DNA from: an uncultured Candidatus Saccharibacteria bacterium
GTDB lineage: Bacteria; Patescibacteriota; Minisyncoccia; Phycocordibacterales; Phycocordibacteraceae
Length of the DNA stretch: 62,469 bases
Assembly: GCA_964398865.1 (NCBI GenBank)
Contig: CAYNOO010000004.1
Coordinates: 1-62,469, forward strand
Reading direction: 5' to 3'
Part shown: one piece after another, positions 38,179 to 60,953 of the stretch
Position numbering within the stretch: the stretch's first letter is position 1
How the letters are laid out: each line of letters starts with the position of its first letter
Notes under the pieces: model-generated
What the model was told of the DNA's origin: nothing
The model's database searches: none
Seen by the model: the letters and a program-made list of their open reading frames with translations, nothing else
Translations under genes and position numbers: made by a program

Positions 38179-38300
38179 GAGTGAGGGAGAAAATAAAGAA
38201 CGTGTTCTTATTTTCCCCGAACGAAGCCCTTGAAAGCTTTACTTACATCGGCGAATTCTCTTTTGAGAACTGCGCTGGAAGCTTTATTTACATCGTCGCT
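38179..38300 (-). repeat. tRNA-5'-end repeat array upstream of tRNA-Thr(GGT)
   Basis: Copies of tRNA nt 1-9 at 38244-38252 and 38289-38297, each followed (sense) by A(G/A)TAAAGCTT and a hairpin. Confidence 0.75.
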
Positions 38301-38318
38301 CTCGCCCTACCTTCCCTT

Positions 38319-38927
38319 ATGGGTGGATCTTATAGTACCCACAAGCAGCCCTTTTTCCAAGTTTTGCTTGATACACTATGTTTTGTGCTGAAGCACTACC
38401 CTCGCTTCACGACTATCGCGCTTTCCTATCTCGTAGCTGGATTGCTTTTCCTATTTCTCGGAGCTCCCTTTTTCCAAAGTCTTATTTTGCCATTTGGCAT
38501 ATTAGGAGCTGCCATTGCGGGTGCTCTCTATACGTATAGTTTCACTGCATCCATTGGAGCGCTCCTTCTAGTGGCACTTGCCCCATTTCATCCTGTAGGT
38601 GTCCTTGCTGTTGTCGGCGGAGTGGGAGCGACAATTGCAGACTATACAATATTCAGATTCGTTCGCGATGACCTGAAGAAGGAAGTAAAACGCTTTGGTG
38701 CATCAAAAATGATACGGAACATATGCGCAGCCGATGGCATTCTTTGTAGGACTTGGATGCGAAATTTACTTGGCACTCTCATCATGGCTTCTCCGTTTCC
38801 GGATGAACTTGGCATCGCCATGATGAGCACAACAAAAATGAAGCAAGGTACATTCCTGCTTCTTGCGTTCATTGTAGATATGGTAGGTATCTACTTACTC
38901 GTGACAATCGCGGGATTGGTGTTTTAG
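38319..38927 (+). CDS. Hypothetical multi-pass membrane protein
   Basis: ORF-track start 38088 overlaps the tRNA; next in-frame ATG is 38319; several TM helices, SPFPDE motif. Confidence 0.6.
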   Translation: MGGSYSTHKQPFFQVLLDTLCFVLKHYPRFTTIALSYLVAGLLFLFLGAPFFQSLILPFGILGAAIAGALYTYSFTASIGALLLVALAPFHPVGVLAVVGGVGATIADYTIFRFVRDDLKKEVKRFGASKMIRNICAADGILCRTWMRNLLGTLIMASPFPDELGIAMMSTTKMKQGTFLLLAFIVDMVGIYLLVTIAGLVF

Positions 38928-38954
38928 GAACATTCTAAATGCACACCTCGCAAC

Positions 38955-39704
38955 TTAAATGATAGTAAGTTCTAAAGGACTGTGATCGGATACTCGATCA
39001 GACAGAATATGGACGCGAGAGCGTTTCGCTGTTTTCACATCTGCGAATAGATGATCAGTTTTGAACCGAAGTCCGATGCCTAGTTTCGCGAGAAAGACAG
39101 CACTGCTGTTAACTATGTTTGGATGGGGCTCGCTGTAGCGGCTATCCAATGTTGGACCGAGACGACGTGTCGTTGCGATAAATTCCGGAGACATAAGATC
39201 GCACGCGCGTTTTACCTCGCCTGGAAAGCCTAGATTAAAATCGCCTCCGACCACAAGGGGTATTTCGGTATCAGTTTCTTTTAACAGACTTTGCTTGAGC
39301 GCGATCACTTCCCTTGCGCGCACAGAGGGACGCAAACCCGAATGCAGATGCACTGATCCAACTTGAATGTCACTTCTAGTAATTCTGAATGTACCGAGTA
39401 ACATGCCAAAGCCTGGATGCTGGAGGGGTGGTGACGGATGCATGCGTCCGAAAGAATCTAAGCTGCTCTTCTTCAATGTAAATGTATCGCGATAGATAAT
39501 ACACAAGTGGCTTTGCGCCCCCATGATTTCATCGAAAGCTTGGAGTAGTTGATATGGCCCAGTGTTGCGAATCAAAGACAAAACTTTTTCATCGACTTCT
39601 TGAAGCAGAATAAAATCATACACTCCGCTCTCAAGAATACTTTTCATGAAAGCAGACAATAAGGGGTGAAAAGCCTTCTGAGTATTCAGACTGAGTATAC
39701 GCAT
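38955..39704 (-). CDS. Endonuclease/exonuclease/phosphatase (EEP) family protein
   Basis: MRILSLN, LLQEV, SVHL, GDFN, TDH, SDH.P. Start moved from 39752. Confidence 0.85.
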   Translation of the reverse strand: MRILSLNTQKAFHPLLSAFMKSILESGVYDFILLQEVDEKVLSLIRNTGPYQLLQAFDEIMGAQSHLCIIYRDTFTLKKSSLDSFGRMHPSPPLQHPGFGMLLGTFRITRSDIQVGSVHLHSGLRPSVRAREVIALKQSLLKETDTEIPLVVGGDFNLGFPGEVKRACDLMSPEFIATTRRLGPTLDSRYSEPHPNIVNSSAVFLAKLGIGLRFKTDHLFADVKTAKRSRVHILSDRVSDHSPLELTII

Positions 39705-39729
39705 GAGACTCAGTATAAGTGTTTTTGAA

Positions 39730-39907
39730 GCGCGGCTGATGAGTTTGGTCACAAATATTTCCTCGCCGCTGCTCGGAAATTTTGCGACCCCCGCTCACCT
39801 GTTTTGACTTCTGCCAAAACATGGTTCCGCCCGTCAGCACCCATACGAAAGTGAAGTAGGTCACTTTCTCAGCCGCCAAACTAAAATCCCCTTTCGGGGA
39901 TTTAAAG
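39730..39907. repeat. tRNA-3'-associated structured element, Asp copy
   Basis: Direct repeat 39730-39741 = 39910-39921; inverted copy 39833-39844 + 39870-39878 split by 25-nt hairpin 39845-39869. Confidence 0.85.
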
Positions 39908-39982
39908 TGGCGCGGCTGATGGGTGCTGACCCCACGACCTCTCGCGTGACAGGCGAGTGCTCTACCGTTGAGCTACAGCCGC
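39908..39982 (-). tRNA. tRNA-Asp(GTC), atypical T-loop
   Basis: GCGGCTG/CAGCCGC, G73, CCA, CTCGC-CTGTCAC-GCGAG, T-loop GTCAGCA. Confidence 0.9.
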
Positions 39983-40125
39983 AAGCGAGGAAGAAAATGA
40001 AAACCTATTTTCATTTTTTCCGAGTGAAGCGGCTGAAAGCTTTGCTTACAGCCGCAAGTGAAGAACTAATAAACGCCTGCGGTTATTAGTTCCGAGCGTC
40101 AACTGCATGAGTACATACAGCCCAC
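39983..40125 (-). repeat. tRNA-5'-end repeat array upstream of tRNA-Asp
   Basis: Copies of tRNA nt 1-9 at 40047-40055 and (degenerate) 40116-40125; linker AGCAAAGCTTTCA; intervening hairpins. Confidence 0.75.
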
Positions 40126-40184
40126 GTATTCGCGATTCTACCAGAAAAAGCCCTTAAAAACGAGCGCGAGCAGTCCGCTCTACA

Positions 40185-40332
40185 TTGTGTCGGGAGGAGG
40201 CTTGGTCACCTGTTCTCGCTGCGCGAGCCAGTCGACCCCACCTCGTCTGTCGCAAGCGACATGACTCCGGTTTGCAAGTCCTCCACGTCCTGTACTCAAG
40301 TACAGGACTTCCCGAACAATCGCTTCGCTTTG
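40185..40332. repeat. tRNA-3'-associated structured element, CAT copy
   Basis: 16-bp direct repeat 40185-40200 = 40330-40345; inverted copy 40273-40284 + 40310-40319 split by 25-nt hairpin 40285-40309. Confidence 0.85.
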
Positions 40333-40406
40333 TGTCGGGAGGAGGACTTGCACCTCCGACCTAGGGCTTATGAGTCCCTCGCTCTAACTACCTGAGCTAT
40401 CCCGAC
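40333..40406 (-). tRNA. tRNA with CAT anticodon (Ile2 or elongator Met), atypical T-loop
   Basis: GTCGGGA/TCCCGAC, A73, loop CTCATAA, T-loop TGCAAGT; G1:C72 pair so not initiator. Confidence 0.9.
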
Positions 40407-40454
40407 AAACACCGTCGTAGCTAACGCCCGACAATGACACTAATCTAGCACTAT

Positions 40455-41135
40455 TCAGGATTTCCTCAAAAGCGCTTCTGCACTCGCGACATCCTCTGGA
40501 TACGTAACGGTAATCCACTGATTCTGGCGTACCACTGACACTGGCTTTTCTTTTGCGATCATCGAAAGCAAGTCCGTAAGAAAGTATTCCCCTAAACGCT
40601 CATTCAAAACGGGTTCGACTGCAAAGATATCCGGCGCAAGAATCATTGCTCCTGCATTCACGAGAGAGCTCGAGGGATGCTCCGGTTTTTCAACAATCGT
40701 CCGCAACGTGCCGTCTGGGTTAAGCTCAACGACGCCGTACCGCTCCGGATGTTCGCGCTCTGCCGCAAATAGACAGTATTCATACTCCGCGCCTTTACTG
40801 AATGCTTCCTTGTCGCCAATATCATCACCATAGAGCATGATGAATTTCTCATTGATAAACTCTTTCGCTAGATACACGGCATTCCAGGTTCCTAATTGTT
40901 TTTCTTGGACAACGTAGCGGATAGACTTCCCTTTCCACTCGTCTCCGAAATATTCTCGTATTTTTTCTCCCTTGTACCCGATGATAATTACAATGTCCGT
41001 AACTGCATCTGGAAGTTGTTCTAACACATACTCCAAGACTGGCTTGCCGTTAAGCAGCACCATTCCTTTCGGGCGGTCATCGGTGAGCGGGCGCAAACGC
41101 GTTCCCTCCCCTCCTGCGAGTATCAAAGCTTGCAT
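40455..41135 (-). CDS. Sugar-phosphate nucleotidyltransferase (NTP_transferase)
   Basis: ILAGGEGTRLRPLT..PKGM, QEKQLGT, YGDD, EKP. Start moved from 41156. Confidence 0.9.
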   Translation of the reverse strand: MQALILAGGEGTRLRPLTDDRPKGMVLLNGKPVLEYVLEQLPDAVTDIVIIIGYKGEKIREYFGDEWKGKSIRYVVQEKQLGTWNAVYLAKEFINEKFIMLYGDDIGDKEAFSKGAEYEYCLFAAEREHPERYGVVELNPDGTLRTIVEKPEHPSSSLVNAGAMILAPDIFAVEPVLNERLGEYFLTDLLSMIAKEKPVSVVRQNQWITVTYPEDVASAEALLRKS

Positions 41136-41167
41136 AACTCTTCGATGATAACTCAAAAAACTAAACT

Positions 41168-41372
41168 TTGTTATACGGATCGGATTCGGTCACGAGTCAC
41201 GTAAGTATTTTTCTTCGAAAGCTCAAAAAATACTAAGTGCTCTCGACCCCGCCTCGTCTGCCGCAAACGGCATGACTCCGGCTTTCGAATCCTGACGTGA
41301 ACGAAGCAGTTCGTTCACTGCCCTCGCAAAAGCTATGAAAAAACCGGCTCAACGCCGGTTTTTTCGTGCTTG
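41168..41372. repeat. tRNA-3'-associated structured element, fMet copy
   Basis: Degenerate direct repeat 41168-41188 vs 41370-41390; inverted copy 41284-41294 + 41320-41329 split by 25-nt hairpin 41295-41319; terminator-like hairpin 41338-41364. Confidence 0.8.
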
Positions 41373-41443
41373 TTGCGGGGCCAGGATTCGAACCTGGGTC
41401 TGGAGGTTATGAGCCTCCTGAGGTACCACTCCTCCACCCCGCT
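41373..41443 (-). tRNA. Initiator tRNA-fMet(CAT)
   Basis: A1:A72 mismatch, A11:U24, GCGGGG/CCCCGC acceptor; anticodon stem GGAGG/CCTCC. Confidence 0.85.
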
Positions 41444-41528
41444 ATAGAGGGCAATAATACGCCGAATCGACCTACACTTCAAGCTAGGCGGAAATAAGAA
41501 AAAAAGCTATAGTTCGTTTCTTTCCACT

Positions 41529-41786
41529 ATGACTTCAGAAATTAATGCCCGGGAAGAATTGAAAATTCTTGGCGACGAATTGCGAACACAGCTGAATCAC
41601 TTTGCTGATCCAGAAACAGCATTGAGTCCGCACACAAGCTTAGGACGATGGGTACATAATCTAGCTGACTTAATGATAGGAATGCGCATGCGTGTTTCGG
41701 GTGGCGGAGTAGTAGAAACAGGTGAGCTACAAAATGTGCGGGCAAAACTTGCGAGGCTAAAATCAATCGCAGTTAGATACAAATAA
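41529..41786 (+). CDS. Hypothetical protein (85 aa)
   Basis: Fills intergenic gap, helical composition; no motif recognised. Confidence 0.45.
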   Translation: MTSEINAREELKILGDELRTQLNHFADPETALSPHTSLGRWVHNLADLMIGMRMRVSGGGVVETGELQNVRAKLARLKSIAVRYK

Positions 41787-41829
41787 ATAGTTGAATCGAC
41801 CTCTGATTCAAGTAGGTTATAATTTTCTG

Positions 41830-42096
41830 ATGAGCTGGCAGGATATTATTCTTTCCATCGGGCAATATGTTTTCGTCATCGCGCTCCTGCCGTCGGTCTT
41901 TGGCAAAGATAAGCCTGCTCTTTCCTCAAGTTTAATTACTGCCATCATCTTGGCAATTTTCAGCCTCGTGTATTCCACGCTTGATCTGTGGAGTTCGACG
42001 GTAGCGTCCGGCATCGTTTCCGCTACGTGGTTTCTTTTAGCGTGGCAGCAATACAGAAAGAAAAAAGTTTCGGCTTCTGATTCAACAGGGGGTTAG
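41830..42096 (+). CDS. Small membrane protein (PQ-loop-like)
   Basis: MSWQDIILSIG...LLPSV; three TM; TATAAT 6 nt upstream. Start moved from 41791. Confidence 0.6.
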   Translation: MSWQDIILSIGQYVFVIALLPSVFGKDKPALSSSLITAIILAIFSLVYSTLDLWSSTVASGIVSATWFLLAWQQYRKKKVSASDSTGG

Positions 42097-42866
42097 ATGA
42101 AATCGAATTCTTGAAATACCTGCTCGTACAATTTCATTACGCGAAAGGCTTCCTGCTGAGTAAGAATATAACTTGAAGAAGAAGCCGCGACGAAATTTCT
42201 GATGCGATGCGCTTCCCAAGCAAACGGTAGTGTCACGAATGCATTCTCAGGAACCAACCTGATTTGCTCTGAAGTTGTTTTCCCGGCATAGCCTAATTTC
42301 TCAAACATCTCTCCCAGCATCGTGTCAGCTTCAAGGATGCCCTGGCGCCAACGCTTCGGGTCATTGGATCTTGCGCCATCGAGCAAAAGCTGCCAGCGTT
42401 CTCGAAGTGGATGTACTACTGTCTCAGCAGGCGGCAAAGTTCCATACAAGGAGCCTTCACTAAAACGGAGTGAAAAAAGATACACAAGAAGCCCGACGAT
42501 AGCGACGAAAAGAAGCCCTGAAACCGTGTAGGCAATAAAACTATACAGAGACCAAATGAAAGAGATTACCGCTCCAATAAAATTTCCTACAAAAAAAATT
42601 GCGTCTGCAATAAAGCCAAATGGACCACTATGAACTATAGGTTGACCGAGGGATCCAGCTGATCCGTTTCCTCCGAAAAGCCAACTCCAAAAATCCACAT
42701 TGCCTGACGGACTTGCACCGCCTCCCGTAGACGCTCCGCTCGTTAGCGTTGCATTCACATCTCCCGTCACTAAATCAACTTCCGTACACTTTCCACCGAA
42801 AATGGAGTAGATAAGGCAATACCAATACTGGAGATTGACGTACTTAAGGTAGAGAGGTTCCATCAT
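42093..42866 (-). CDS. Conserved hypothetical membrane protein
   Basis: TM segment then W..L...S.DP..WR..ILEAD..L...G.T..E..AW.AH.IRN. Confidence 0.6.
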   Translation of the reverse strand: MMEPLYLKYVNLQYWYCLIYSIFGGKCTEVDLVTGDVNATLTSGASTGGGASPSGNVDFWSWLFGGNGSAGSLGQPIVHSGPFGFIADAIFFVGNFIGAVISFIWSLYSFIAYTVSGLLFVAIVGLLVYLFSLRFSEGSLYGTLPPAETVVHPLRERWQLLLDGARSNDPKRWRQGILEADTMLGEMFEKLGYAGKTTSEQIRLVPENAFVTLPFAWEAHRIRNFVAASSSSYILTQQEAFRVMKLYEQVFQEFDFI

Positions 42867-44278
42867 AGAGTCTCGCCCAGAAGGTCTCGAGCGATATCAA
42901 ACAGTGAGGCTTCGGTACGCTTTGGGCTCATAAACTGTATACCCACCGGCAACTCAACCCCATCCCGAGTCACTTTATTCATCGGTACTGAGATTGCCGG
43001 AATACCGGTCAAGTTTGCCGGAGCTGCAAATATGTCTTCAAGATACATAGAAACCGGGTCGCTCTTCTCCCCTATCTTGAAAGCAGGTCCCGGCGTCGTT
43101 GGAGTAGCGATGAACGCAACATCCGCAAACGCTTTTTTCAAATCATTCGCAAGAACGCTCCGAAGCGCAGTCGCTCGTTTGTAGTATGCGTCGTAATGAC
43201 CAGACGAAAGTACGTGCGCGCCCAAAATAACACGGCGTTTCGTTTCAGGACCAAAGCCCGCCGAGCGTGACTGCTCATATTCTTCAAGAAGATTTTTCCC
43301 TTCATGTGAAAGCCCGTAGCGCATGCCATCAAAGCGCGCCAGGTTAGTAGAAACTTCAGCGGGCATCACGATGTAATACGCAGCAAGCCCGTACGGAGCG
43401 GACGGAAATTCTATATCAACGATTTCATATCCCTTCCCGCGTAACGTGTCCAAAGTTTTTTCAAAATTCTCACGCACATCCGGCTGCGCATCTTTTACGA
43501 ACTCGCGCGGTATGCCGATGCGTTTATTTGAAACACGCGTCTCACCCTGGTTTGGCAATGTCGTGCCATCAAGCGGGTCAGCCCCTCGCATCACATCAAA
43601 CACGAGCTTCGCATCATGAACCGTGTGCGTAATAGGACCTATCTGATCCAGCGAAGAACCCATAGCGATGAGCCCTGAGCGCGATACCTCACCATACGTT
43701 GGCTTCAATCCCACAAGCCCACACAAACTCACTGGCTGGCGTATGGAGCCGCAGGTTTCCGATCCAAGCGCAATAGGTGCCAAGTGCGCGGCAACCGCTG
43801 CGGCAGAGCCGCCTGACGAGCCGCCAGGAACGCGCAGAGTGTCGTGGGGATTTCTTGTTGGACCATACGCGGAGTGTTCAGTAGAAGAACCCATGGCAAA
43901 CTCGTCCATGTTGGTGCGACCCAAAAAAATTGCTCCGGCATCCTTGAGGCGCGCTATCGCGGTCGCATCATAGGTTGCAACATGATTCTCAAGCATTTTG
44001 GATGCCGCGCTCGCACGCTTCCCTTTTATCAAGATATTGTCTTTGACTGCAATGGGAACACCGGTGAGAAGATGAGCAGCGTCTCCTTTCCGAGCGAGAA
44101 GCTTGTCGGCGTCCTCCGCTTTCGTCACGACGTCATCAAATACTTCAAGATACGCATTGAGCGCAGGGTTTTCTTTCTCAATACGCGCTACGTGCGCCTT
44201 CGCAACATCCACCGCAGAAAAAGTCCGCGCGCGGTAGCCTTTTGCCAATTCCTTTGCTGATAAGTCTGTGAGGTCCAT
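42863..44278 (-). CDS. gatA: Asp/Glu-tRNA amidotransferase subunit A
   Basis: AVKDN, NMDEFAMGSSTE, PGGSSGGSAAA, GSETCGSIRQP. Confidence 0.95.
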   Translation of the reverse strand: MDLTDLSAKELAKGYRARTFSAVDVAKAHVARIEKENPALNAYLEVFDDVVTKAEDADKLLARKGDAAHLLTGVPIAVKDNILIKGKRASAASKMLENHVATYDATAIARLKDAGAIFLGRTNMDEFAMGSSTEHSAYGPTRNPHDTLRVPGGSSGGSAAAVAAHLAPIALGSETCGSIRQPVSLCGLVGLKPTYGEVSRSGLIAMGSSLDQIGPITHTVHDAKLVFDVMRGADPLDGTTLPNQGETRVSNKRIGIPREFVKDAQPDVRENFEKTLDTLRGKGYEIVDIEFPSAPYGLAAYYIVMPAEVSTNLARFDGMRYGLSHEGKNLLEEYEQSRSAGFGPETKRRVILGAHVLSSGHYDAYYKRATALRSVLANDLKKAFADVAFIATPTTPGPAFKIGEKSDPVSMYLEDIFAAPANLTGIPAISVPMNKVTRDGVELPVGIQFMSPKRTEASLFDIARDLLGETL

Positions 44279-44283
44279 AAAAA

Positions 44284-44577
44284 TTAACCCAAAACTTTCT
44301 TCACCTTCACGTAATTTCCTTCCCGGCGAGGCACCTGTGCCAAAAGGTCTTCGGTATATTTTCCAGCCTCATGAGGGTTTACATCCTCCCGCATGACATT
44401 CTCTATATCCAAATGCGCAGACGAGCTATTGCTCTCTGGCAGAGGTACCTTCTGCACCACATCTATATATGAAACGATTGCATCGATTTCTCCTTGGAGC
44501 TTTGCGATTTCCTCATCCGTGAGGGAAAGACGACCCAAAACGGCGAGTTTTCGTACATCGTCAGCGCTGATTGCCAT
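44284..44577 (-). CDS. gatC: Asp/Glu-tRNA amidotransferase subunit C
   Basis: V.KLA.L.RL...E, MRED, L...P...G.YVKVKKVL. Start moved from 44619. Confidence 0.9.
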   Translation of the reverse strand: MAISADDVRKLAVLGRLSLTDEEIAKLQGEIDAIVSYIDVVQKVPLPESNSSSAHLDIENVMREDVNPHEAGKYTEDLLAQVPRREGNYVKVKKVLG

Positions 44578-44621
44578 TCCCGGCATTTTATCACGGAGCG
44601 CGCGTAGGCGCATGAACACTG

Positions 44622-46667
<2,046 letters not shown>

Positions 46668-46689
46668 CTAGAAACGTATTTCTTCAAAA

Positions 46690-46806
46690 TCAGCAATTGA
46701 AGAATAGCGAGCATACGATGCAGCATCTATTTGGCGTACTGAGCACGGCGCCACATCCTCCTTTACATGAATACTCACCCCCTGATTCAAAATTTTCAGC
46801 GTTCAT
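46690..46806 (-). CDS. Six-cysteine small peptide 2 (38 aa): MNAENFESGGEYSCKGGCGAVLSTPNRCCIVCSLFFNC
   Basis: Own translation, below ORF-track cutoff; paralog of adjacent peptide with synonymous-biased divergence. Confidence 0.75.
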   Translation of the reverse strand: MNAENFESGGEYSCKGGCGAVLSTPNRCCIVCSLFFNC

Positions 46807-46813
46807 GTATACC

Positions 46814-46924
46814 TTAGCACTTTCTTGCTATTGAACAGATGACGCAACATTTCCCTGGCGCACTGAGCATCCCACCGCATCCTCCTTTGCAGGGGAATTC
46901 ACCACCCGGACCCGTCCTATCCAT
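46814..46924 (-). CDS. Six-cysteine small peptide 1 (36 aa): MDRTGPGGEFPCKGGCGGMLSAPGKCCVICSIARKC
   Basis: Own translation; alternative in-frame ATGs at 46942 and 46954. Confidence 0.75.
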   Translation of the reverse strand: MDRTGPGGEFPCKGGCGGMLSAPGKCCVICSIARKC

Positions 46925-47611: not shown

Positions 47612-47621
47612 AAAAAAATAA

Positions 47622-50669: not shown

Positions 50670-50672
50670 ATG

Positions 50673-51371: not shown

Positions 51372-51374
51372 CGC

Positions 51375-52703: not shown

Positions 52704-52752
52704 TGCGGTGCATTGTACTATTAATGACCCTCATTAGGTGCTACTCTTGCGG

Positions 52753-52790
52753 TACCAGATTATTGACATTCTGGTAGGTTTCTTTAGAAT
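52753..52790 (+). promoter_or_regulatory. Sigma70-like promoter of the polyamine cluster with overlapping palindrome
   Basis: TTGACA 52763-52768, 16-nt spacer, TAGAAT 52785-52790; TACCAGA-N10-TCTGGTA spans the -35. Confidence 0.55.
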
Positions 52791-52811
52791 AACGCGCTCT
52801 AGAAGAATCAA

Positions 52812-54191
52812 ATGCCTCGATCAAAGAAAAACTATAAGCGATTCTGGAAACTCGGCCAGGACGAGTACAACACGCAATACTTCGACATCACTCCCGAGGG
52901 AGATTTGATGGTGAAGGAAGGCAACTATCAATACAACATCCACAACCTCATCAAGAAGTACGGGTCCCCTCTTGAGGTGGTATTCCCATTCATCCTTGAA
53001 AATCGTGTTCGCAACCTCATAGACATCTTTGACGCGTACATAAAGTTGTATGGCTATAAGGGTAAGTTCTACTACCACTACGCAATGAAAGTGAACCAGA
53101 ATAAGGAATTCGTCCTGCCGGTCGTTTCCGAAGGCGGGCACTTCGACGTTGCATCGGTCAACGAGTTGTGGCTCGTAAAGAAGATGCTCTTAGAGCAGAA
53201 ATTCAATCCTAAGATTCGCGTCATCTGCAATGGTCCAAAAACTGAAGCCTACATCACCCTTATCGAAGAGTTGAAGAGCAAAGGACTCACCGTCATCCCT
53301 ATCATCGAAGACTACAACGAGCTCGAGCGATTCAAAAACTTCAAAGGTGAAACCGGGATTCGTCTCAACATGAATATCCGTGTGCAGTCGCACTGGGATA
53401 AGCGTTTTAATCGCTACGGCTTCCGTGAGGATGAAATAGTGAAGCTTGGAAAAATTAGGAACTTGAGCGTTCTTCACTACCATATCTCATCTCAACTAGA
53501 GAAAGTAGATGGGCTCGTGGAACCATTGAAGCGCGCGCTCGAAATTTATGAAAAACTTCGCGAGAAAAATCCAGGGCTCGACACTATCGACATGGGCGGC
53601 GGGGCTGGTGTCCCTTACGAGAAGAAGGGCAAGTTCTATACAGGCAAATCAGCGATAAATAAGATAGTGCGTACTGCTAAGAACTACTGTGATAAAGCGG
53701 GCATCAGGCATCCAAACCTCATTGTTGAATGGGGACGCTATGTCGCCGCTCCCGCACAATTAACGCTCTACAAGATATTGACCGAGAAGAGTGTGAGTGA
53801 AGAAGGCGCGCGCAAGTGGTACATCATCGACGGCAGCTTCATGAACGATCTTTTGGACACCTGGGCTTTGAAGCAGAAATGGCACGTCACGCCTGCTAAC
53901 AACATGAAGAATAGAAAGCTGCAGCGTATTTGGTTTGCAGGCTCCTCGTGTGACTCTGATGATAAATACACGGCAGGAGGCGGAAATATCAGCATGCCTC
54001 GCCTTGAAGACTTGGAGACCAATGACCATCAGTATGTTGCCTTCTATGACACGGGGGCATACCAAGACGCGCTCGCTTCACACCACTGCCTACTCTCCTC
54101 ACCAGCAAAGATCATCTGCCAGGACGGTGAGATAAAATTGGCACGCAGACGCGAGACATCAGAAGATGTCGGGAAACAATTCGGCTGGTAG
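52812..54191 (+). CDS. speA: Orn/DAP/Arg decarboxylase (fold III PLP), probably arginine decarboxylase
   Basis: YAMKVN (PLP Lys), CNGPK, DMGGG, EWGRY, GSSCDSDD, GAYQD; context with aguA/aguB. Confidence 0.75.
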   Translation: MPRSKKNYKRFWKLGQDEYNTQYFDITPEGDLMVKEGNYQYNIHNLIKKYGSPLEVVFPFILENRVRNLIDIFDAYIKLYGYKGKFYYHYAMKVNQNKEFVLPVVSEGGHFDVASVNELWLVKKMLLEQKFNPKIRVICNGPKTEAYITLIEELKSKGLTVIPIIEDYNELERFKNFKGETGIRLNMNIRVQSHWDKRFNRYGFREDEIVKLGKIRNLSVLHYHISSQLEKVDGLVEPLKRALEIYEKLREKNPGLDTIDMGGGAGVPYEKKGKFYTGKSAINKIVRTAKNYCDKAGIRHPNLIVEWGRYVAAPAQLTLYKILTEKSVSEEGARKWYIIDGSFMNDLLDTWALKQKWHVTPANNMKNRKLQRIWFAGSSCDSDDKYTAGGGNISMPRLEDLETNDHQYVAFYDTGAYQDALASHHCLLSSPAKIICQDGEIKLARRRETSEDVGKQFGW

Positions 54192-54205
54192 CGGGGCGCT
54201 CGCGC

Positions 54206-54317
54206 CTGCTTTCTGGAATCTCAAAACCTGTCCAGCGACAGGCTTTGTTCGTCCTCGGCGCAGTTTCGCTGAAACAGCGAACCATGCAACTGCGCCTGCG
54301 AATGTTCCAGAAAGCAG
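54206..54317. other. Branched intergenic secondary-structure element
   Basis: Perfect 13-bp closing stem plus 6-, 9- and 7-bp internal stems. Confidence 0.7.
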
Positions 54318-54388
54318 ACACTCGCTTTTAAGGTGTCTTTTGAAACGACTCTCTTGATATGCATATTTTTGGCTCATTTTGATATAGT

Positions 54389-55405
54389 ATGGAAGATATG
54401 AAAAAAGCACCGGGAAAGAAAAAAGTAACAAAAAAGACCGGACCCATTCGGGCATTCATTGATCATAATTATCGGCACTTCAACGCAGCGGCTTTGAGGG
54501 ATGCAGCCATCGGATACGAGAAGCACATTGATGCAGGAGGAAAGATGATGGTCACCTTGGCTGGCGCGATGAGCACAGCGGAACTTGGCATCTCGCTTGC
54601 GGAGATGATTCGGAAAGGTAAAGTAGACATCATTTCATGCACGGGAGCTAACCTTGAAGAAGACTTGATGAATTTGGTTGCGCACAGTCACTACAAGCGC
54701 GTTCCTCATTACCGAGACCTTAGTCCCGAAGACGAGCGCGACCTTTTGGATAACCATTACAATCGCGTTACCGACACCTGCATCCCTGAAGAAGAAGCAT
54801 TCAGAAGACTTCAGAAACATATATTCAAACTTTGGAAGAAGGCGGACGATGCGGGCAAGCGATTCTTGCCTCACGAATACATGTACCAGCTCATCAAAAG
54901 CGGTGTTTTAAAGCAATACTACGAGATTGATCCGCAAGATAGCTGGATGATAGCTGCTGCTGAGAAAAATATTCCCATCGTGGTGGGCGGCTGGGAAGAC
55001 AGCACTATGGGCAATATCTTCGCCTCCTACGTCATCAAGAAGGAACTCAAAGCTTCAACGATGAAAAGCGGCATTGAGTACATGATTTACCTTACTGAGT
55101 GGTACCGAAAGAACTCCGGCGGCAAAGGTGTTGGATTCTTCCAGATAGGTGGTGGTATAGCTGGCGACTTCCCTATCTGTGTTGTGCCTATGATGTACCA
55201 GGATTTGGAATGGCACGACGTACCATTCTGGAGTTACTTCTGTCAGATAAGCGATTCCACCACCTCATACGGCTCCTATTCGGGCGCGGTACCTAATGAA
55301 AAAATAACGTGGGGCAAGTTGGATATAGATACCCCCAAATACATCATTGAATCCGACGCGACAATTGTCGCGCCGCTTATCTTCTCGTATATCCTCGGAA
55401 AATGA
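54389..55405 (+). CDS. Deoxyhypusine-synthase-like protein (probable homospermidine synthase, SpeY-type)
   Basis: HFNAA, TLAGAM, TGANLEED, YNRV.D, WEDST, IGGG, SYSGA..NEKITWGK, DAT. Start may be 54398. Confidence 0.85.
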   Translation: MEDMKKAPGKKKVTKKTGPIRAFIDHNYRHFNAAALRDAAIGYEKHIDAGGKMMVTLAGAMSTAELGISLAEMIRKGKVDIISCTGANLEEDLMNLVAHSHYKRVPHYRDLSPEDERDLLDNHYNRVTDTCIPEEEAFRRLQKHIFKLWKKADDAGKRFLPHEYMYQLIKSGVLKQYYEIDPQDSWMIAAAEKNIPIVVGGWEDSTMGNIFASYVIKKELKASTMKSGIEYMIYLTEWYRKNSGGKGVGFFQIGGGIAGDFPICVVPMMYQDLEWHDVPFWSYFCQISDSTTSYGSYSGAVPNEKITWGKLDIDTPKYIIESDATIVAPLIFSYILGK

Positions 55406-56256
55406 AAAAGAAAGTCACTGTTGCCGCGATACAAAGCAAGGTCTCTAAGGACGAACACGCGAACCTGAAACATACGCTCGCGCTCGTTCGCCGTGCCGCA
55501 AAGAAGGGCGCGAAGATAATCTCGCTTCAGGAGCTGTATCGGACGACATACTTCCCCCAGTATAAGAAGCAGGCCTTCGATAAATACTCAGAGACGATTC
55601 CTGGGGAGTCCACCAAAGCTTTCAGCGCGCTCGCGAAAGAGCTCGGGGTCATCATCATCGTTCCTTTGTTTGAGAAAGCGAAAGACGACCACTACTATAA
55701 TTCAGCCGTCGTCATCGACCACACCGGAAAGCTCCTGCCGACATACCGCAAGATTCATATTCCGCAGGATGCCTTATTTTATGAAAAGAATTACTTCAAA
55801 GAAAGTACCGACGGCTATAAAATCTACAAGACAAAATTTGGCACCTTCGCCGTTCTCATCTGCTATGACCAGTGGTTTCCTGAGGCTGCGCGCATGGCGA
55901 CCTTGGCGGGCGCTGACATCATCTTCTACCCCACCGCCATCGGGTATGTGCGCGGATACAATTCACCTGACGGCGATTGGCACGACGCGTGGGAAACAAT
56001 CATGCGTGGACACGCTATCGCAAACGGCGTTCATATTGTTGCAATCAATCGCACGGGGCGTGAAGATAAACTGAATTTCTGGGGGCAATCATTTGCCTGT
56101 GACTCATTCGGCAAGGTTCTGAAGCGCGCCAGTGCTACCAAAGAAGAGGTGCTCGTTGCAACGCTCGACCTCAGTCACAACAAACGCATTCGTGAGGGGT
56201 GGGGATTTTTCCGTAATCGCCGTCCAGAAACGTATAAATTTGATCCGACTACGTAA
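55402..56256 (+). CDS. aguB: N-carbamoylputrescine amidase (carbon-nitrogen hydrolase)
   Basis: LQEL (Glu), YRKIHIP (Lys), ICYDQWFPE (Cys), RGHAIANG. Confidence 0.85.
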   Translation: MKKKVTVAAIQSKVSKDEHANLKHTLALVRRAAKKGAKIISLQELYRTTYFPQYKKQAFDKYSETIPGESTKAFSALAKELGVIIIVPLFEKAKDDHYYNSAVVIDHTGKLLPTYRKIHIPQDALFYEKNYFKESTDGYKIYKTKFGTFAVLICYDQWFPEAARMATLAGADIIFYPTAIGYVRGYNSPDGDWHDAWETIMRGHAIANGVHIVAINRTGREDKLNFWGQSFACDSFGKVLKRASATKEEVLVATLDLSHNKRIREGWGFFRNRRPETYKFDPTT

Positions 56257-56258
56257 CA

Positions 56259-57293
56259 ATGCAAACACCAAAAGAGTTAGGTTTTTCAATGCCCGCGGAG
56301 TGGGAAAGGCACACGGCAGTCTGGCTCTCGTGGCCTCACGACACCACCTCATTCCCCCACCTCAAAGAAGCAGAAGAGTCTTTTGCTGAATTTATAAAAG
56401 AGATTTCCACTTCAGAAAAAGTAGAGCTCCAGGTCTTGAATGAAGTGATGCTCGACCACGTAACTGAAATACTTGAGGCGCGAGGTGTTGATATGAGCAG
56501 AATCACCTTTCATCCGGCTAATTACGCGGATATATGGTTTCGCGACTATGGTCCCTTGTTCATCGTGAACCGCGAGACGAAGGAGCTCGCGATGACAAAG
56601 TGGATTTTCAATGCCTGGGGCGATAAGTACCAAACACTACTTAAAGACAACGCCACACCTCATCGGATGAATGAGGCAATGAAGCTCAAAGTATTCGAGC
56701 CCGGAATCGTGATGGAGGGCGGCTCTATAGAGGTGAATGGAAAAGGTACCTTAATGACAACGGAGCAGTGTCTCTTAAATAAGAACCGAAATCCGGAACT
56801 CTCTCGGGAGCAGATCGAAGCTTCACTCCGTGATTACTTAGGTGTACGGCATTTCGTCTGGCTTAAAGAAGGAATAGAGGGAGATGATACCGATGGACAC
56901 ATAGACGACATCGCGCGCTTCGTGAACGACACGACAGTCTTATGCGCCTACGAAGAAGATACGACGAGTGCAGACTATGCGACTTTGAAAGAAAATTTTC
57001 AGATTCTACAGCGCTCTGTCGACCAGAGCGGTACGCCACTTACTGTCATTAAGCTTCCAACGCCTGGGGCAATCTCCGCTCACAAGGAGCGTTTGCCCGC
57101 AAGCTACGCAAACTTTTATATTGGCAATACGAAAGTGTTGGTGCCCATCTTCGGCACACTCAACGACCAAAAAGCTTTAGGCATTATTCAGTCGGTTTTC
57201 CCTGACCGGAAAGTAATCGGCATCGATGCAACTTACCTTGTATACGGCATGGGCACTTTCCACTGTATGAGCCAGCAGCAACCGGAGGTTTAA
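56259..57293 (+). CDS. aguA: Agmatine deiminase (PPAD family)
   Basis: MPAEW, W.RDYGP, EGGSIEVNG, DTDGHIDD, SYANFY, G.FHC.SQQQP. Confidence 0.92.
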   Translation: MQTPKELGFSMPAEWERHTAVWLSWPHDTTSFPHLKEAEESFAEFIKEISTSEKVELQVLNEVMLDHVTEILEARGVDMSRITFHPANYADIWFRDYGPLFIVNRETKELAMTKWIFNAWGDKYQTLLKDNATPHRMNEAMKLKVFEPGIVMEGGSIEVNGKGTLMTTEQCLLNKNRNPELSREQIEASLRDYLGVRHFVWLKEGIEGDDTDGHIDDIARFVNDTTVLCAYEEDTTSADYATLKENFQILQRSVDQSGTPLTVIKLPTPGAISAHKERLPASYANFYIGNTKVLVPIFGTLNDQKALGIIQSVFPDRKVIGIDATYLVYGMGTFHCMSQQQPEV

Positions 57294-57376
57294 CCGTCGC
57301 AAAGTTCCTTATTTTTGTTCGGTCGCACAGAAGTGCGACACCCTACGAAACATACTCACTACGTTCGTTGTTTCTG

Positions 57377-57458
57377 TGGGCGCGGGGAGACTCGAACTCC
57401 CAACCCTTGCAGGATACGCTTCTGAGGCGTACGCGTATACCAGTTCCGCCACGCGCCC
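57377..57458 (-). tRNA. tRNA-Leu(CAG)
   Basis: GGGCGCG/CGCGCCC, TACGC-CTCAGAA-GCGTA, long variable arm. Confidence 0.95.
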
Positions 57459-57499
57459 TTGAACGGAGACTATAACAAATTAAGGATTTCTTTGCTGCT

Positions 57500-58582
57500 C
57501 TAGATTGATTCAAGTGCTTTGCACAACCTTTCAAATTCTTCTTCGGAGTGAGCTGGAAAATTTCCGATGCGAATATGATTTTCTTTGTGGAATCCGTAGC
57601 CCGAGCTCACTACTATTCCCCTCTCCTTAAGGGCTTGGATTACCGGAAGCGATCCTCCTTTTACAGTAGCTACAAGCGTGGTGACTGAGCGAGCACTAGG
57701 GTCTTGGACGAACGGATTTAAAACAGAGCTTTCCTCAAACAAATTGTAGAGCTGCCCCGCGCGCACCTTAGTGGTACTTCGCAACTCTTGGATTTCTTCT
57801 GCCATCTCGCCGGCAACTTTCATAAGAAGATAGAGCCCAAGAACATTTGGCGTCTCCGGAGTTTGATTGCGCTCCGCATATTTCTTAAGCTCAAGGAAAC
57901 TATGAAAACTGCCTATTGATGTCTTGGCAGAGAGATCTTCCGCTTTTGCAAGCGCCCGAGGGCTCACGATCAATGCGCCTAAGCCCGCCGGCAGACCGAA
58001 GCATTTTTGGACTGAAAAGAACGCGCAATCGATATCCTTGAACTCAACTTCAGCGATGGGGGCTGAGGAAACGATATCTACCCCGATGAGCACGTCCGGA
58101 TACTTAGCGCGAAGCATTTCTATGGCTGAAGGACGGATTGCACTACCCATGCTCGTTTCATTCTGGGTAACACAGATTATTTCTGCTGCATCAGAAAAAG
58201 AAACATTCTGTAAATCAGGAACTGCCCCATCAGCTGCTGTGAGTGTCTCAGTCTTCCTACCTAATTCTTTACTTATGACCTCCCATCGCTTAGAGAAAGC
58301 TCCATATACAATATGAGCGCTCGTCTCACGAACGATATTCTCAATAATACGCTCCATCCCTTCCGTACCAGAAGACAGAAAAAAAATCTCATAATCGGCA
58401 GGGACACCAAGGAGTTTCCTCAAGGACACAATGGTAGCAGCGACTATGTCTTGAAAACCTTTACTGCGGTGCGAGATAGATGGAATGCCAAGCGAAAACG
58501 CTTCTGCTACATATCCAGATACGGATGGAAAGAGCGCGGAAGGACCGACAGTCCAGATATCAGATGTGGATTCACTTGGCAT
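57500..58582 (-). CDS. serC: Class V aminotransferase, probable phosphoserine aminotransferase
   Basis: GPS, SHRS..F, NETS.G, D.VSS, FSVQK.FG (PLP Lys), TPN; co-oriented with serB-serA. Confidence 0.75.
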   Translation of the reverse strand: MPSESTSDIWTVGPSALFPSVSGYVAEAFSLGIPSISHRSKGFQDIVAATIVSLRKLLGVPADYEIFFLSSGTEGMERIIENIVRETSAHIVYGAFSKRWEVISKELGRKTETLTAADGAVPDLQNVSFSDAAEIICVTQNETSMGSAIRPSAIEMLRAKYPDVLIGVDIVSSAPIAEVEFKDIDCAFFSVQKCFGLPAGLGALIVSPRALAKAEDLSAKTSIGSFHSFLELKKYAERNQTPETPNVLGLYLLMKVAGEMAEEIQELRSTTKVRAGQLYNLFEESSVLNPFVQDPSARSVTTLVATVKGGSLPVIQALKERGIVVSSGYGFHKENHIRIGNFPAHSEEEFERLCKALESI

Positions 58583-58585
58583 ACA

Positions 58586-60505
58586 TTAGTAAAGAATGCG
58601 GAGTCTGATAGTCTCAGACATCTTTTTGAGTGTCTCTACGATACCTGGTTTATATTTGTCTTCAACGTCGGTGATAACATAGCCCACGTCATTCATCGTG
58701 CCGAGATACTGACCGAGAATATTAACGCCCTCCTGACCCATGAGCGTGTTGATTTTCGCTAACACGCCAGGCACATTTTTATGTATATGAATGAGACGGT
58801 GTGCGTGATTCAAAACTGGTAATTGTAAATTAGGCAGGTTGACTGAAAGCATTGTGCCGCCGGTGTCGATGAATGAGGCGAGCTTATTAGAGAGAAAGCG
58901 AGCAATACTTTCCTGCGCTTCTTCGGTAGAACCACCAACGTGTGGTGTAAGGATGACGTTAGATAATCCTTGCAGAGACGATACAAACTTCCCAGGGCTC
59001 TCTTTAGGCTCTTCCGGGAAGACATCGAGTGCCGCTCCTCCGAGGTGCCCGCTTTTAAGCGCCTCTGCGAGAGCAGATACGTCCACGACCGCTCCCCTGC
59101 TGATATTGAGGAAAAGCGCTCCTGGTTTCATTAGACTGAACTGCTCGCTTCCTATAAGCCCTTTGTTGAATGAGCGACCGTCTACATGAAGCGTAACAAT
59201 GTCGCTTTTCCTCAGAAGTTCTTCTAAAGACTCAACGCGCGTTGCGTTTCCGATGGCGGGTCGCTCAACAATATCGTAGAAACAAACGTTTAATCCCAAA
59301 CTTTCAGCAATCACCGAGAGCTGCGAGCCGATATTTCCATATCCTACAATACCCAAAGTCTTCCCACGTATCTCGTATGCCCCTTTTGCTGATTTGCCCC
59401 ATTGCCCTTCGTGAAGCGCGAGACTTTTATCAAAAACGCGCCTGGCAAGCATAATGATAAGACCGATAGTGAGCTCAACAACACTGCGACCATTACTGAA
59501 AGGAGCGTTGAACACCGCGACTCCCCGTTTGGTTGCAGCGTGCTGATCTATCTGGTTCGTACCGATGCAGAATGCACCTACAGTTAGAAGATTCGTTGCT
59601 TTCGCGAGAACCGCATCAGACACATGCGTGGAAGAACGGATACCTAAGATGGCGACGCCCTTTATTTTTTCTGCGAGCGCCGTCTCTGAAAGTGCCTTAG
59701 GGGAAGTCTCTACCTGGTAGCCTTGGGATCTAAAATATTCTGCAGCGAACGGATGAATATTCTCAAGTAACAGGATCTTAAGCCGACTTTTTGGGTACGA
59801 GACCGCGCGTGGCATATTCAAAGCAAACAAGAGTTCATCAAAATTAGCTATAGCGAGATCTGCCTTTTCAACTACCTGAGCGCGAGAAACATTTTCCGTG
59901 AAAGCAACAAACTTGTCAGCGACTCCAAGAATTCTAATTTCAAGATCAGTCGCACCATCTCCGATCGCAAGAACCTGACCTTTGAGCTTAAGATTTTTTA
60001 CTGCAAGCGCTTTCCCTTTATCTTTCGTCAATATACCGGGACTCACTCCCTGAATAACACCTTTCTTATTAAAACGAAGTTCGTTGGCGAGAACGTGGGA
60101 TGGAAAGATGCCGAACTCTTTCACTATGGGAACGATGCATTCTTTGAACCCGCCTGACACGATGTAGATGCAGTCGCGGTTCTTCTGGAAGAAATCGCGA
60201 TTCCGCACTACCGAGGGCGTTATTCGGCTTTTCAGATACTCAACCGTCTCTTGTACGTGAGAGCGATTAGGAGAAAACAAAGCAAGACGTTGTTTCAGTG
60301 AGTCCGAAAAAGGCAATTTCCCTTCCATTCCCTTGGAAGTAATAGCTTCTATCTTTTTCAAAATTGCCTCTTTGCGAGGATTATCTTTAAGAGCGAAAGC
60401 GGCAAGCACATCAATGGTCTCGTCACGAATGAACGTGCTATCAAAATCAATGATGAAAAATGTCTTGGGGATCTTAACTGTCTTCCGTTTCTGAATTTGT
60501 GCCAT
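58586..60505 (-). CDS. serA: Phosphoserine phosphatase (HAD) / D-3-phosphoglycerate dehydrogenase / ACT fusion
   Basis: N-terminal DFDST..E.ID, SGGF, K, GDG.TD (SerB); GIRS, CIG.NQ, GYGNIG, DVFP.EP, PHVGGST.EAQ, HKNVPG.L (SerA + ACT). Confidence 0.92.
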   Translation of the reverse strand: MAQIQKRKTVKIPKTFFIIDFDSTFIRDETIDVLAAFALKDNPRKEAILKKIEAITSKGMEGKLPFSDSLKQRLALFSPNRSHVQETVEYLKSRITPSVVRNRDFFQKNRDCIYIVSGGFKECIVPIVKEFGIFPSHVLANELRFNKKGVIQGVSPGILTKDKGKALAVKNLKLKGQVLAIGDGATDLEIRILGVADKFVAFTENVSRAQVVEKADLAIANFDELLFALNMPRAVSYPKSRLKILLLENIHPFAAEYFRSQGYQVETSPKALSETALAEKIKGVAILGIRSSTHVSDAVLAKATNLLTVGAFCIGTNQIDQHAATKRGVAVFNAPFSNGRSVVELTIGLIIMLARRVFDKSLALHEGQWGKSAKGAYEIRGKTLGIVGYGNIGSQLSVIAESLGLNVCFYDIVERPAIGNATRVESLEELLRKSDIVTLHVDGRSFNKGLIGSEQFSLMKPGALFLNISRGAVVDVSALAEALKSGHLGGAALDVFPEEPKESPGKFVSSLQGLSNVILTPHVGGSTEEAQESIARFLSNKLASFIDTGGTMLSVNLPNLQLPVLNHAHRLIHIHKNVPGVLAKINTLMGQEGVNILGQYLGTMNDVGYVITDVEDKYKPGIVETLKKMSETIRLRILY

Positions 60506-60545
60506 AGGTATAAAAATTCATTATAGCGGGAACGCCCAGCTATAC

Positions 60546-60570
60546 AAAAACCGGCATACGCCGGTTATTT
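60546..60570 (-). terminator. Hairpin/terminator ending the tRNA-Ile element
   Basis: aaaaaccggc-atac-gccggttattt. Confidence 0.6.
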
Positions 60571-60571
60571 T

Positions 60572-60731
60572 GTGCGAGTGGAAGGAATCTCTCCTTACAG
60601 GAGCTGTACACCTTTGCGGTTTTCTCACGCAAAAGCCGCTCGTAAACATCGCAAAGGACTCCGATTCCTTCACGTACGCCAAGCCGTTGGCGTACTCACT
60701 CGCATACAAAAAGCCGGTATGAACCGGCTTC
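60572..60731. repeat. tRNA-3'-associated structured element, Ile copy
   Basis: 18-bp direct repeat 60572-60589 = 60734-60751; inverted copy 60660-60671 + 60697-60704 split by 25-nt hairpin 60672-60696. Confidence 0.85.
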
Positions 60732-60806
60732 TGGTGCGAGTGGAAGGAATCGGACCTTCGACCTCTGTCTTATCAGGACAGCGTTCTACCACTGAACTAC
60801 ACTCGC
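60732..60806 (-). tRNA. tRNA-Ile(GAT), atypical T-loop
   Basis: GCGAGTG/CACTCGC, A73, CCA, CTGTC-CTGATAA-GACAG, T-loop TCCGATT. Confidence 0.93.
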
Positions 60807-60953
60807 GAGCGAGAAAGAAAGTATGTGCGAAGCACCGTTTCAGTGGAGCAGAGACAGAGGAAAGATCACTTTCATTCTGGCTCGCCGACACGGAAACGTA
60901 AGCGACAGCGTACTTTTTGCGAGCGACCCGAGTGAAAGCCCTGCTTACACTCG
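60807..60953 (-). repeat. tRNA-5'-end repeat unit upstream of tRNA-Ile
   Basis: Copy of tRNA nt 2-9 at 60946-60953, then AGCAGGGCTTT-CACTCG (acceptor 3' mimic). Confidence 0.7.

Follow-up and report, generated by a model that had tools for sequence, protein, structure and literature searches.

Hairpin cassettes upstream of tRNA genes that repeat the acceptor 5' strand of the matched tRNA in one genus of Patescibacteriota

REP and REPIN sequences are small, imperfect (bulged) hairpins without open reading frames (ORFs), which occur in many dispersed intergenic copies, in both orientations, and flank a RAYT gene. In the IS200/IS605 family, bases borne by the element that are complementary to the target are a known principle, and the miniatures derived from it carry a sub-terminal hairpin at either end and insert 3' of a fixed target of 4-5 nucleotides (nt), which is not duplicated. 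Among repeats associated with stable-RNA genes, the tRNA-linked repeats (TLRs) of Escherichia coli lie behind tRNA and rRNA genes, within their operons, and end in 18-19 base pairs (bp) of the gene's 3' end, most of them being without known function (PMC8144298). In plant mitochondria, t-elements are tRNA-like processing signals (PMC1920247), and mutation by template switching has been documented to generate hairpins or to make them perfect (PMC8794818). Here we describe a non-coding cassette of about 73 nt that precedes tRNA genes of an uncultured Candidatus Saccharibacteria bacterium and copies the beginning of the tRNA that follows it. Our starting point, referred to below as the window, is the whole stretch of 62,469 nt analysed (GenBank assembly GCA_964398865.1, contig CAYNOO010000004.1), which is contig C4 of a 795-kb genome in 27 contigs (G000) with 46 tRNA genes. 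DNA runs containing the window are groundwater metagenomes, and public genomes that also carry the element bear the labels Candidatus Kaiserbacteria, Paceibacterota or Parcubacteria. Text searches of the literature found no description of the cassette.

Each unit consists of a pair of 7-bp arms closed by a 13-nt linker, the motif TCRCTCG, a bulged hairpin (hairpin B) and the motif CTCRCTY, after which the tRNA begins. The linker itself forms a constant hairpin (U, AAGC-AAA-GCUU, U), that is a U.U mismatch, the AAGC/GCUU stem and a triloop, and the whole mini-helix thus comprises 12 stacked layers (7 bp, U.U and 4 bp). Across the 103 distinct units that we collected from 89 loci, the linker is 13 nt long in 90. 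In hairpin B, one C bulges out behind the fourth base pair, and this bulge is conserved; when its two strands were compared for wobble asymmetry, the antisense strand took up a different fold. Measured from unit start to tRNA +1, the distance has its peak at 73-76 nt, and a further cluster lies at 143-160 nt; the Ile unit belongs to a class with a long leader of about 148 nt. One long type (L1), in which hairpin B has grown into a branched fold that includes a hairpin of UUCG type, precedes tRNA-Ile, tRNA-Lys(TTT) and tRNA-Lys(CTT) here and tRNA-Thr(GGT) in the relative G019. The other (L2) precedes tRNA-Arg(GCG) here and the tRNAs for Met, Asp, Arg(TCT) and Thr in relatives.

The match between cassette and tRNA is real and lies far beyond chance. 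When hairpins were picked by their linker and 3' flank alone, 29 of 43 matched nt 1-7 of the downstream tRNA in at least six of seven positions, against a mean of 3.7 and a maximum of 9 when the tRNAs were permuted. Pairing in the helix holds in 91.7% of cells over the 103 units (67% in shuffles), double changes occur in all 11 helix pairs, and controls in which the strands were slid collapse. Of the 103 units, 85 have a tRNA no more than 330 nt downstream, and these tRNAs represent 24 kinds and 15 amino acids. The original prediction, made for three tRNAs of the window, had described locus-specific arms around a shared linker: the arms are indeed specific to the tRNA, and the linker is common, but it is not universal, with other 4-bp extensions present in relatives.

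Scanning tRNA leaders throughout this genome and its relatives extended the picture well beyond those three tRNAs. The linker pattern occurs four times in the window, where 0.63 matches are expected, and a cassette stands at 10-11 of the 46 tRNA genes of the genome. The same arrangement is found before Arg(GCG), Arg(CCG, with two units), Lys(TTT), Lys(CTT), Pro(TGG), Pro(CGG) and Cys, and Val(GAC) is preceded by a variant cassette. A covariance model of the unit (R1), trained on nine units, finds 13 copies in the genome, 11 of them at most 160 nt upstream of a tRNA on the same strand; the remaining two form an orphan array (C6:55987-56102). Among genomes of the same genus, 23 of 25 contain matches to the model, with 0-15 copies per genome, whereas no match was returned in 16 genomes that represent other families of the order. 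A tRNA-anchored census that makes no use of the linker likewise returned background in three other families (4 of 46 tRNAs, against 4.75 after permutation), and the cassette is therefore restricted to the genus. Rfam matched only tRNA and rRNA, both in the window at gathering score and at seven cassette loci at E<=1, and neither Rfam nor ARAGORN recognised a tRNA in the units. Generic hairpin scans and loose motif scans were too unspecific for use, and matches to the linker pattern in Melainabacteria were set aside as unrelated, their sequences being unpaired.

The edges of the copied segment are sharp. At position -1, identity between the unit and the tRNA flank is at background (12 of 33 units without an upstream cassette), and at +10 it is down to 1 of 46. 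Nearly every tRNA and unit has T at position 8, as expected of the universal U8. Position 9 is A in 44 of 46 units irrespective of the tRNA base and belongs to the linker; where the tRNA carries C or G there, the base was copied in none of 10 cases. Given these boundaries and the uncopied position 9, the repeated segment is the 7-nt acceptor strand, and the first nine nucleotides proposed originally shrink to nt 1-7 plus U8. The arm also follows the tRNA between orthologs: at tRNA-Asp it reads GCGGCTG here, GCGGGTG in G041 and GCGGGGG in G015.

The two arms differ in fidelity. While the 5' arm is a perfect copy of the tRNA in 34 of 57 proximal units, the 3' arm is identical to tRNA positions 66-72 in just 15 of 57. 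Informative positions are those where the acceptor stem itself has a G.U pair, including G3:U70 of tRNA-Ala: here the 3' arm is the Watson-Crick complement of the 5' strand in 19 of 19 cases and keeps the tRNA's own 3' base in none. It follows that the 3' arm does not derive from the 3' strand of the tRNA, and what had been taken for an acceptor-3' mimic is a complement of the copied 5' strand. Viewed as a synthetase would view an acceptor stem, the mini-helix does not reproduce it faithfully. Mismatches within the mini-helix comprise 23 G.T and 33 A.C, and this excess of A.C leaves no wobble signature, whereas selection on RNA pairing should favour wobble pairs.

The three structures quoted in the original prediction are all present, on the minus strand of the window, as are the decayed distal units reported at two of them. 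Their features are as follows, with the basis of each assignment in brackets.

38105-38178, minus strand: tRNA-Thr(GGT), the gene served by the first array (ARAGORN; Rfam tRNA, 69.2 bits).
38179-38184, minus strand: pyrimidine leader motif TCACTC of the Thr cassette, abutting tRNA +1 (sequence; CTCRCTY is the consensus over 43 cassettes).
38185-38218, minus strand: hairpin B of the Thr cassette, GGGGAAAATAAGAAC...TTATTTTCTCCC, with bulged C (sequence).
38219-38225, minus strand: motif TTCGTTC, 3' of the Thr mini-helix (sequence).
38226-38252, minus strand: mini-helix of Thr unit 1, GCCGATG-TAAGTAAAGCTTT-CAAGGGC, its 5' arm equal to tRNA nt 1-7 and its 3' arm with two mismatches (covariance model, 46.2 bits).
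38253-38271, minus strand: short spacer hairpin (agTTCTCaaaaGAGAAttc) separating Thr units 2 and 1 (sequence).
38272-38297, minus strand: Thr unit 2, decayed, GACGATG-TAAATAAAGCTTC-CAGCGC (sequence).
38332-38340, minus strand: -10-like box GGGTACTAT, probable promoter for the Thr array (putative; missed by the sigma-70 consensus scan).
39908-39982, minus strand: tRNA-Asp(GTC) (ARAGORN; Rfam).
39983-39988, minus strand: leader motif TCGCTT ahead of tRNA-Asp +1 (sequence).
39989-40021, minus strand: hairpin B of the Asp cassette, 33 nt, bulged (sequence; comparison with the G045 ortholog).
40022-40028, minus strand: motif TTCACTC, 3' of the Asp mini-helix (sequence).
40029-40055, minus strand: Asp mini-helix GCGGCTG-TAAGCAAAGCTTT-CAGCCGC, arms paired 7/7, a perfect 7+4 bp around the U.U mismatch (covariance model, 57.6 bits).
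40056-40062, minus strand: motif TTCACTT, 5' of the Asp mini-helix (sequence).
40063-40093, minus strand: hairpin A, the hairpin of an older, more distal Asp cassette (sequence, fold).
40103-40123, minus strand: decayed third Asp copy, GGGCTGTATGTACTCATGCAG, beginning 11 nt past the -10 box (sequence; compare the distal unit GGCTGTATGAGTAGCTACAGCC of G019).
40135-40143, minus strand: extended -10 box TGGTAGAAT of the Asp array (conserved in G045 and G019).
60732-60806, minus strand: tRNA-Ile(GAT), downstream of the 16S rRNA gene (ARAGORN; Rfam).
60807-60927, minus strand: long-class leader of tRNA-Ile, type L1, 121 nt (hairpin B expanded to a branched structure including the UUCG-type hairpin).
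60928-60954, minus strand: Ile mini-helix (A)CGAGTG-TAAGCAGGGCTTT-CACTCG(G), 6 bp, CGAGTG/CACTCG (covariance model, 48.8 bits).
60979-60987, minus strand: extended -10-like box TGCTAGTAT in the spacer between 16S and tRNA-Ile (putative).

An important clue to how the cassettes arose is the position of the promoter. In this genome, an extended -10 box (TGNTANNNT) ends 9-12 nt before +1 of most stand-alone, cassette-free tRNAs, and natural tRNA leaders are thus just a few nucleotides long. We assigned promoters by conserved extended -10 boxes of this kind, which a standard scan for the sigma-70 -35/-10 consensus misses. Such a box lies within 45 nt of 19 of the 92 outermost units, compared with 2.5% of random positions, and in 10 of these 19 the outermost 5' arm follows it by 8-12 nt, the very spacing that separates box and tRNA +1 in cassette-free genes. 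The units would therefore lie inside the tRNA transcript. The outermost 5' arm stands where tRNA +1 would have stood ancestrally, so that the additional sequence would have come in between nt 7/8 and the remainder of the gene. None of the RNA runs searched contained the Asp leader; groundwater metatranscriptomes gave reads on conserved parts of 16S alone, from other organisms, and left spacer, cassette and tRNA-Ile uncovered. The genome encodes a full-length RNase P RNA (C25:2630-3004, 72 bits).

Unit number varies between 0, 1, 2 and 3 at orthologous tRNAs, the kind of variation that the original prediction proposed to look for. At tRNA-Asp, species have 0, 1 or 2 units (linkers TAAGCAAAGCTTT, TATGGGTACATA, TATTATTAAATA and TGAGCCTAGCTCC), and a cassette is kept in 8 of the 10 genus genomes in which this locus was recovered. 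At tRNA-Thr(GGT), the two units present here are absent from G045, the closest relative found (74% identity across the Asp-Met spacer), in which a box homologous to that of the Thr array is followed, after 10 nt, directly by the tRNA. Distal units of arrays are decayed. An A-B-A array precedes tRNA-Lys in G010, and both of its A units carry the identical mismatch in the 3' arm. Cassettes with different arms at different tRNAs can have constant parts that are 88-96% identical (Pro/Ala, Arg(GCG)/Thr(CGT)). Furthermore, deviant 3'-arm bases are shared with the cassette of most similar constant part in 21 of 44 cases, where 12 are expected. We had considered the near-identical constant parts as proof of rapid re-tailoring of the arms and dropped this argument, because gene conversion between old cassettes explains them equally well.

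Some arrays have no tRNA at all; they terminate in an arm-like heptamer followed by TA and then by non-tRNA sequence. The two-unit array at C6:55987-56150 (plus strand) has the arms GTCGTTG/CAGCGAC and GTCGCTG/CAGCAGC; next come GCTGCTGTAACACAC... and a protein gene, and G005 contains an orthologous orphan (L088). Each of its 3' arms exactly complements the next 5' arm and not its own. A search for a split tRNA behind the orphan array with the intron mode of ARAGORN gave false positives only; tRNA-Asn and tRNA-Gly(GCC) were not found in the assembly. Another orphan, L080 (G013:C1, ~60.0 kb), is a long-leader cassette that ends in GCGCCCG...GGGGGCGG followed by TTTTT; the stem formed on its arm heptamer resembles a terminator, so that a small stand-alone RNA may result.

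Taken together, the reading that we favour, though with roughly even confidence, is that of a lineage-specific, non-autonomous insertion or duplication cassette whose arms are templated by a polymerase and which is harmless through removal by RNase P. In this scenario, a genus-specific non-coding cassette, in a short (~73 nt) or long (~145 nt) version, would enter a tRNA gene between nt 7 and 8. Nucleotides 1-7(8) of the tRNA would be duplicated on either side of it, the upstream copy becoming the 5' arm and the downstream copy restoring the 5' end of the tRNA. The 3' arm would be a polymerase-type Watson-Crick copy of the 5' strand, made by fold-back or template-switch synthesis nucleated by the 4-bp stem of the linker. 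Transcription driven by the promoter of the tRNA would turn the cassette into a structured leader, which the RNase P cut at tRNA +1 would then discard, so that the gene would remain functional and the insertion tolerated. Arrays could grow through repeated events at the 'arm|U8' junction or through slippage between direct repeats spaced 73 nt apart; outer units would decay, and whole arrays could be precisely lost via the repeats. We infer insertion as the mode of origin, the template-switch step, and transcription with RNase P removal from the sequence patterns given above.

A history at the level of DNA fits best the restriction to one genus, the patchy copy number, the precise absence in a close relative, the decay of outer units and the orphan arrays, as well as the asymmetry of the arms, the Watson-Crick rule at G.U positions, the lack of a wobble signature and the promoter spacing. 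Of the two ideas put forward in the original prediction, iterative insertion and a leader decoy or processing signal, the former is thus better supported, by variable unit number, distal decay and promoter spacing, with its junction moved from nt 9/10 to 7/8.

Several points weigh against an insertion history. No mobilising enzyme was identified, the cassette lacks clear terminal inverted repeats, and no unit-sized joints indicative of strain polymorphism were seen at Thr, Asp, Pro or Arg in the low-depth contigs of the source study. Compensatory change in both helices, the constancy of the linker length and the conserved bulge could equally mean selection on RNA. The arms match the acceptor helix exactly, which a constraint on RNA explains more naturally than a cut in DNA. 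Near-identical constant parts at different tRNAs could, as said, stem from gene conversion and not from recent movement. Finally, an 80-kb region of the complete genome G013 has units on either strand, arguing against a strictly strand-biased, single-strand mechanism.

A possible alternative, to which we give less weight, is that the leader is a cis-acting RNA device under selection and that the mini-helix and bulged hairpin act in the maturation of pre-tRNA. It could do so as a pseudo-substrate or entry site for RNase P, or through strand exchange between arm and acceptor that controls tRNA folding. Such a role would agree with units that are always sense, always abut tRNA +1 and lie within the inferred transcript, with a strict helix length whose 12 layers resemble the acceptor/T-arm stack, and with the pyrimidine leader. 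It would also account for the strong covariation of the mini-helix, for the three A-T to G-C double changes, all compensatory, by which hairpin B of the Asp cassette differs between G000 and G045, for the T at -1 of the mini-helix in 25 of 33 outermost units and for retention at tRNA-Asp in most genus genomes with a recovered locus. The predicted fold of the Asp leader, a string of hairpins plus a cloverleaf, and the alternative predicted pairing of a 3' arm with the next 5' arm are in line with it. On the other hand, the cassette is dispensable: copy number falls to zero in some genus genomes, other families have none, and tRNA-Thr(GGT) of G045 does without it. Of the two arms, the 3' arm is the less faithful, the G.U pairs of the real stem are never reproduced, which speaks against an identity mimic, and mismatches are free of wobble bias. 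We also considered whether the 3' arm prefers the 5' strand of the tRNA over its own 5' arm as a pairing partner and rejected this: over the full set, the two partners are about equally frequent (10 against 7, with 40 ties). Distal decay, orphan arrays and the absence of a T-loop fit an RNA device poorly as well.

A bolder form of the insertion reading, which we regard as doubtful, is a new kind of miniature mobile element that enters tRNA genes at the acceptor-stem/U8 junction and has both arms rebuilt from each new target. With one arm copied directly and the other as a Watson-Crick fold-back, every entry would regenerate an intact 5' end of the tRNA along with a hairpin that matches the target. 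If true, this would represent, together with the 3'-end elements of the same genomes described below, a target-templated way of colonising stable-RNA genes.

By analogy with the guides of IS200/IS605, one could further imagine an element of single-stranded DNA that the RAYT-like Y1 (HUH) transposases of the genus move, with the 3' arm as a guide that would pair to the 5' acceptor strand of the tRNA gene and with cutting and rejoining at 'arm|T', but we consider this unlikely. PF01797 genes are present in all 31 genus genomes examined and in 9 of 16 genomes of other families, so that genomes without cassettes commonly have them too. Between the copy number of these genes and unit number there is a weak correlation (rho 0.46, p 0.02), yet in this genome no cassette lies at the sites or even on the contigs of Y1 genes. 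The proteins have the HUH motif and match Pfam Y1_Tnp, and the cassette hairpins are bulged like REP and IS200 ends; REP-like dispersal, however, is not seen. Precise loss, as at Thr(GGT) in G045, and the A-B-A array of G010, which fits insertion at any arm|T junction, would suit such a mechanism, while HUH transposition makes no target duplication, a pre-existing guide is unable to explain arms that fit 24 different tRNAs, and both orientations occur within one region of G013. The three genes (~225 amino acids) lie at C20:941-1618 (+), C20:4284-4961 (+) and C9 ~17.9-18.6 kb (-). The two C20 copies differ by one residue at a distance of 3.3 kb, and the first begins about 230 nt behind a tRNA-Met and its trailer element.

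Lastly, that the units are decayed tandem duplicates of tRNA genes with the body (nt 9-65) deleted is very improbable: although the arms resemble both acceptor strands and the arrays resemble tandem tRNA genes sharing a leader motif, the pseudogene idea is effectively refuted because the 3' arm never keeps the tRNA's own 3' base at G.U sites, and the same 13-nt linker and constant part stand at unrelated tRNAs with no remnants of a tRNA body.

Elements of a different kind are found on the other side of the tRNA genes. Many 3' trailers contain a copy of the tRNA 3' end (the 3' strand of the T-arm plus the 3' strand of the acceptor), usually inverted, for example in the window at 60650-60731 (-), 40186-40331 (-) and 41255-41371 (-), at His/Gly on C1 and at Gly/Leu on C6. 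The trailer of tRNA-Ile has the form TGCGAGTG-[25-nt hairpin]-GAAGGAATCGGA, and that of tRNA-Met has the direct repeat CCTCCTCCCGACACA. A conserved trailer module, CCGGAGYCATG...GACGAGGYGGGGTCG, stands behind two Met tRNAs and a Cys tRNA, and this 3'-element family is separate from the 5' cassettes. In the relative G016, two tRNA genes are interrupted: tRNA-Thr(GGT) is broken right after the anticodon (..CATGGT|GGGTCGCAGACC..; L032, C4 ~267.5 kb) by an insert without Rfam match, and the T-arm of tRNA-Lys(CTT) is interrupted by a 3'-type element (L073, C8 ~96.5 kb). The 5' cassette is intact at both. Between tRNA-Thr(GGT) and tRNA-Thr(CGT) of the window lies an ORF of 145 amino acids (37599-38036, -) with an HNH-like motif, DHIDGN...N...CPNCD, which scores 20.7 bits with Pfam HNH_3, below the cut-off.

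These observations have implications under either of the two leading explanations. If the cassettes are insertions, they would represent a safe-harbour strategy not described before, in which the element lands in a tRNA gene, restores its first seven bases and is erased from the product by RNase P. This would bear on how the ultra-small genomes of the candidate phyla radiation (CPR) tolerate and spread repeats, and would provide a natural example of target-copied hairpins. If, on the other hand, the leader has a role as RNA, it would add to tRNA maturation a level of control peculiar to this lineage, in organisms whose RNA-processing machinery is minimal. In both cases, annotation should not treat cassette hairpins and orphan arrays as tRNA fragments or pseudogenes.

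How do the cassettes compare with known systems? The integrase-type islands at tRNA genes, which are of kilobase scale, encode an integrase and have direct repeats of the tRNA 3' end, are unlike a 73-nt cassette without an ORF on the 5' side. Template-switch hairpins (PMC8794818) offer a one-step, polymerase-templated perfect arm, which fits the uniform Watson-Crick result at G.U sites; the process is generic and untargeted, however, and leaves the constant core, the direct repeat and the restriction to tRNAs unexplained. In terms of mechanism, the closest analogies would be REP/RAYT and IS200/IS605, though their defining features are mostly lacking. As with REP/RAYT, a Y1 HUH gene is present in every sampled genome of the genus, with three copies here, and the hairpins are bulged; unlike REP/REPIN, there are 13 copies, of which 11 stand in sense orientation directly before tRNAs, as single to triple units, with none flanking a Y1 gene. 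Set beside IS200/IS605 miniatures, the cassette has two hairpins but is flanked by a direct repeat of 7-8 nt, and its 'target' differs from tRNA to tRNA.

In terms of function, plant mitochondrial t-elements and the minihelix substrates of RNase P may be the closest analogies. They share with the cassette an acceptor-like helix of about 12 layers with a single-stranded 5' leader, here within the inferred precursor transcript. Unlike them, the cassette has a triloop in place of a T-loop, no CCA and a helix sequence tied to the next tRNA, and it flanks a tRNA that needs no additional signal.

The nearest published phenomenon is, in our view, that of the E. coli TLRs. Both are short non-coding units, single or in short arrays, that copy the terminal letters of an adjacent stable-RNA gene. 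TLRs lie downstream of that gene, whereas all units here lie upstream of the tRNA that they match, and while TLRs repeat the 3' end of the gene, the cassettes repeat nt 1-7(8) of its 5' end and add the Watson-Crick complement, with which the copy forms a hairpin. Moreover, in contrast to TLRs, the cassettes have a constant two-hairpin core in common across 24 tRNA kinds. Overall, they can be viewed as a mirror-image variant of the TLRs to which a complementary arm and a shared two-hairpin core have been added.

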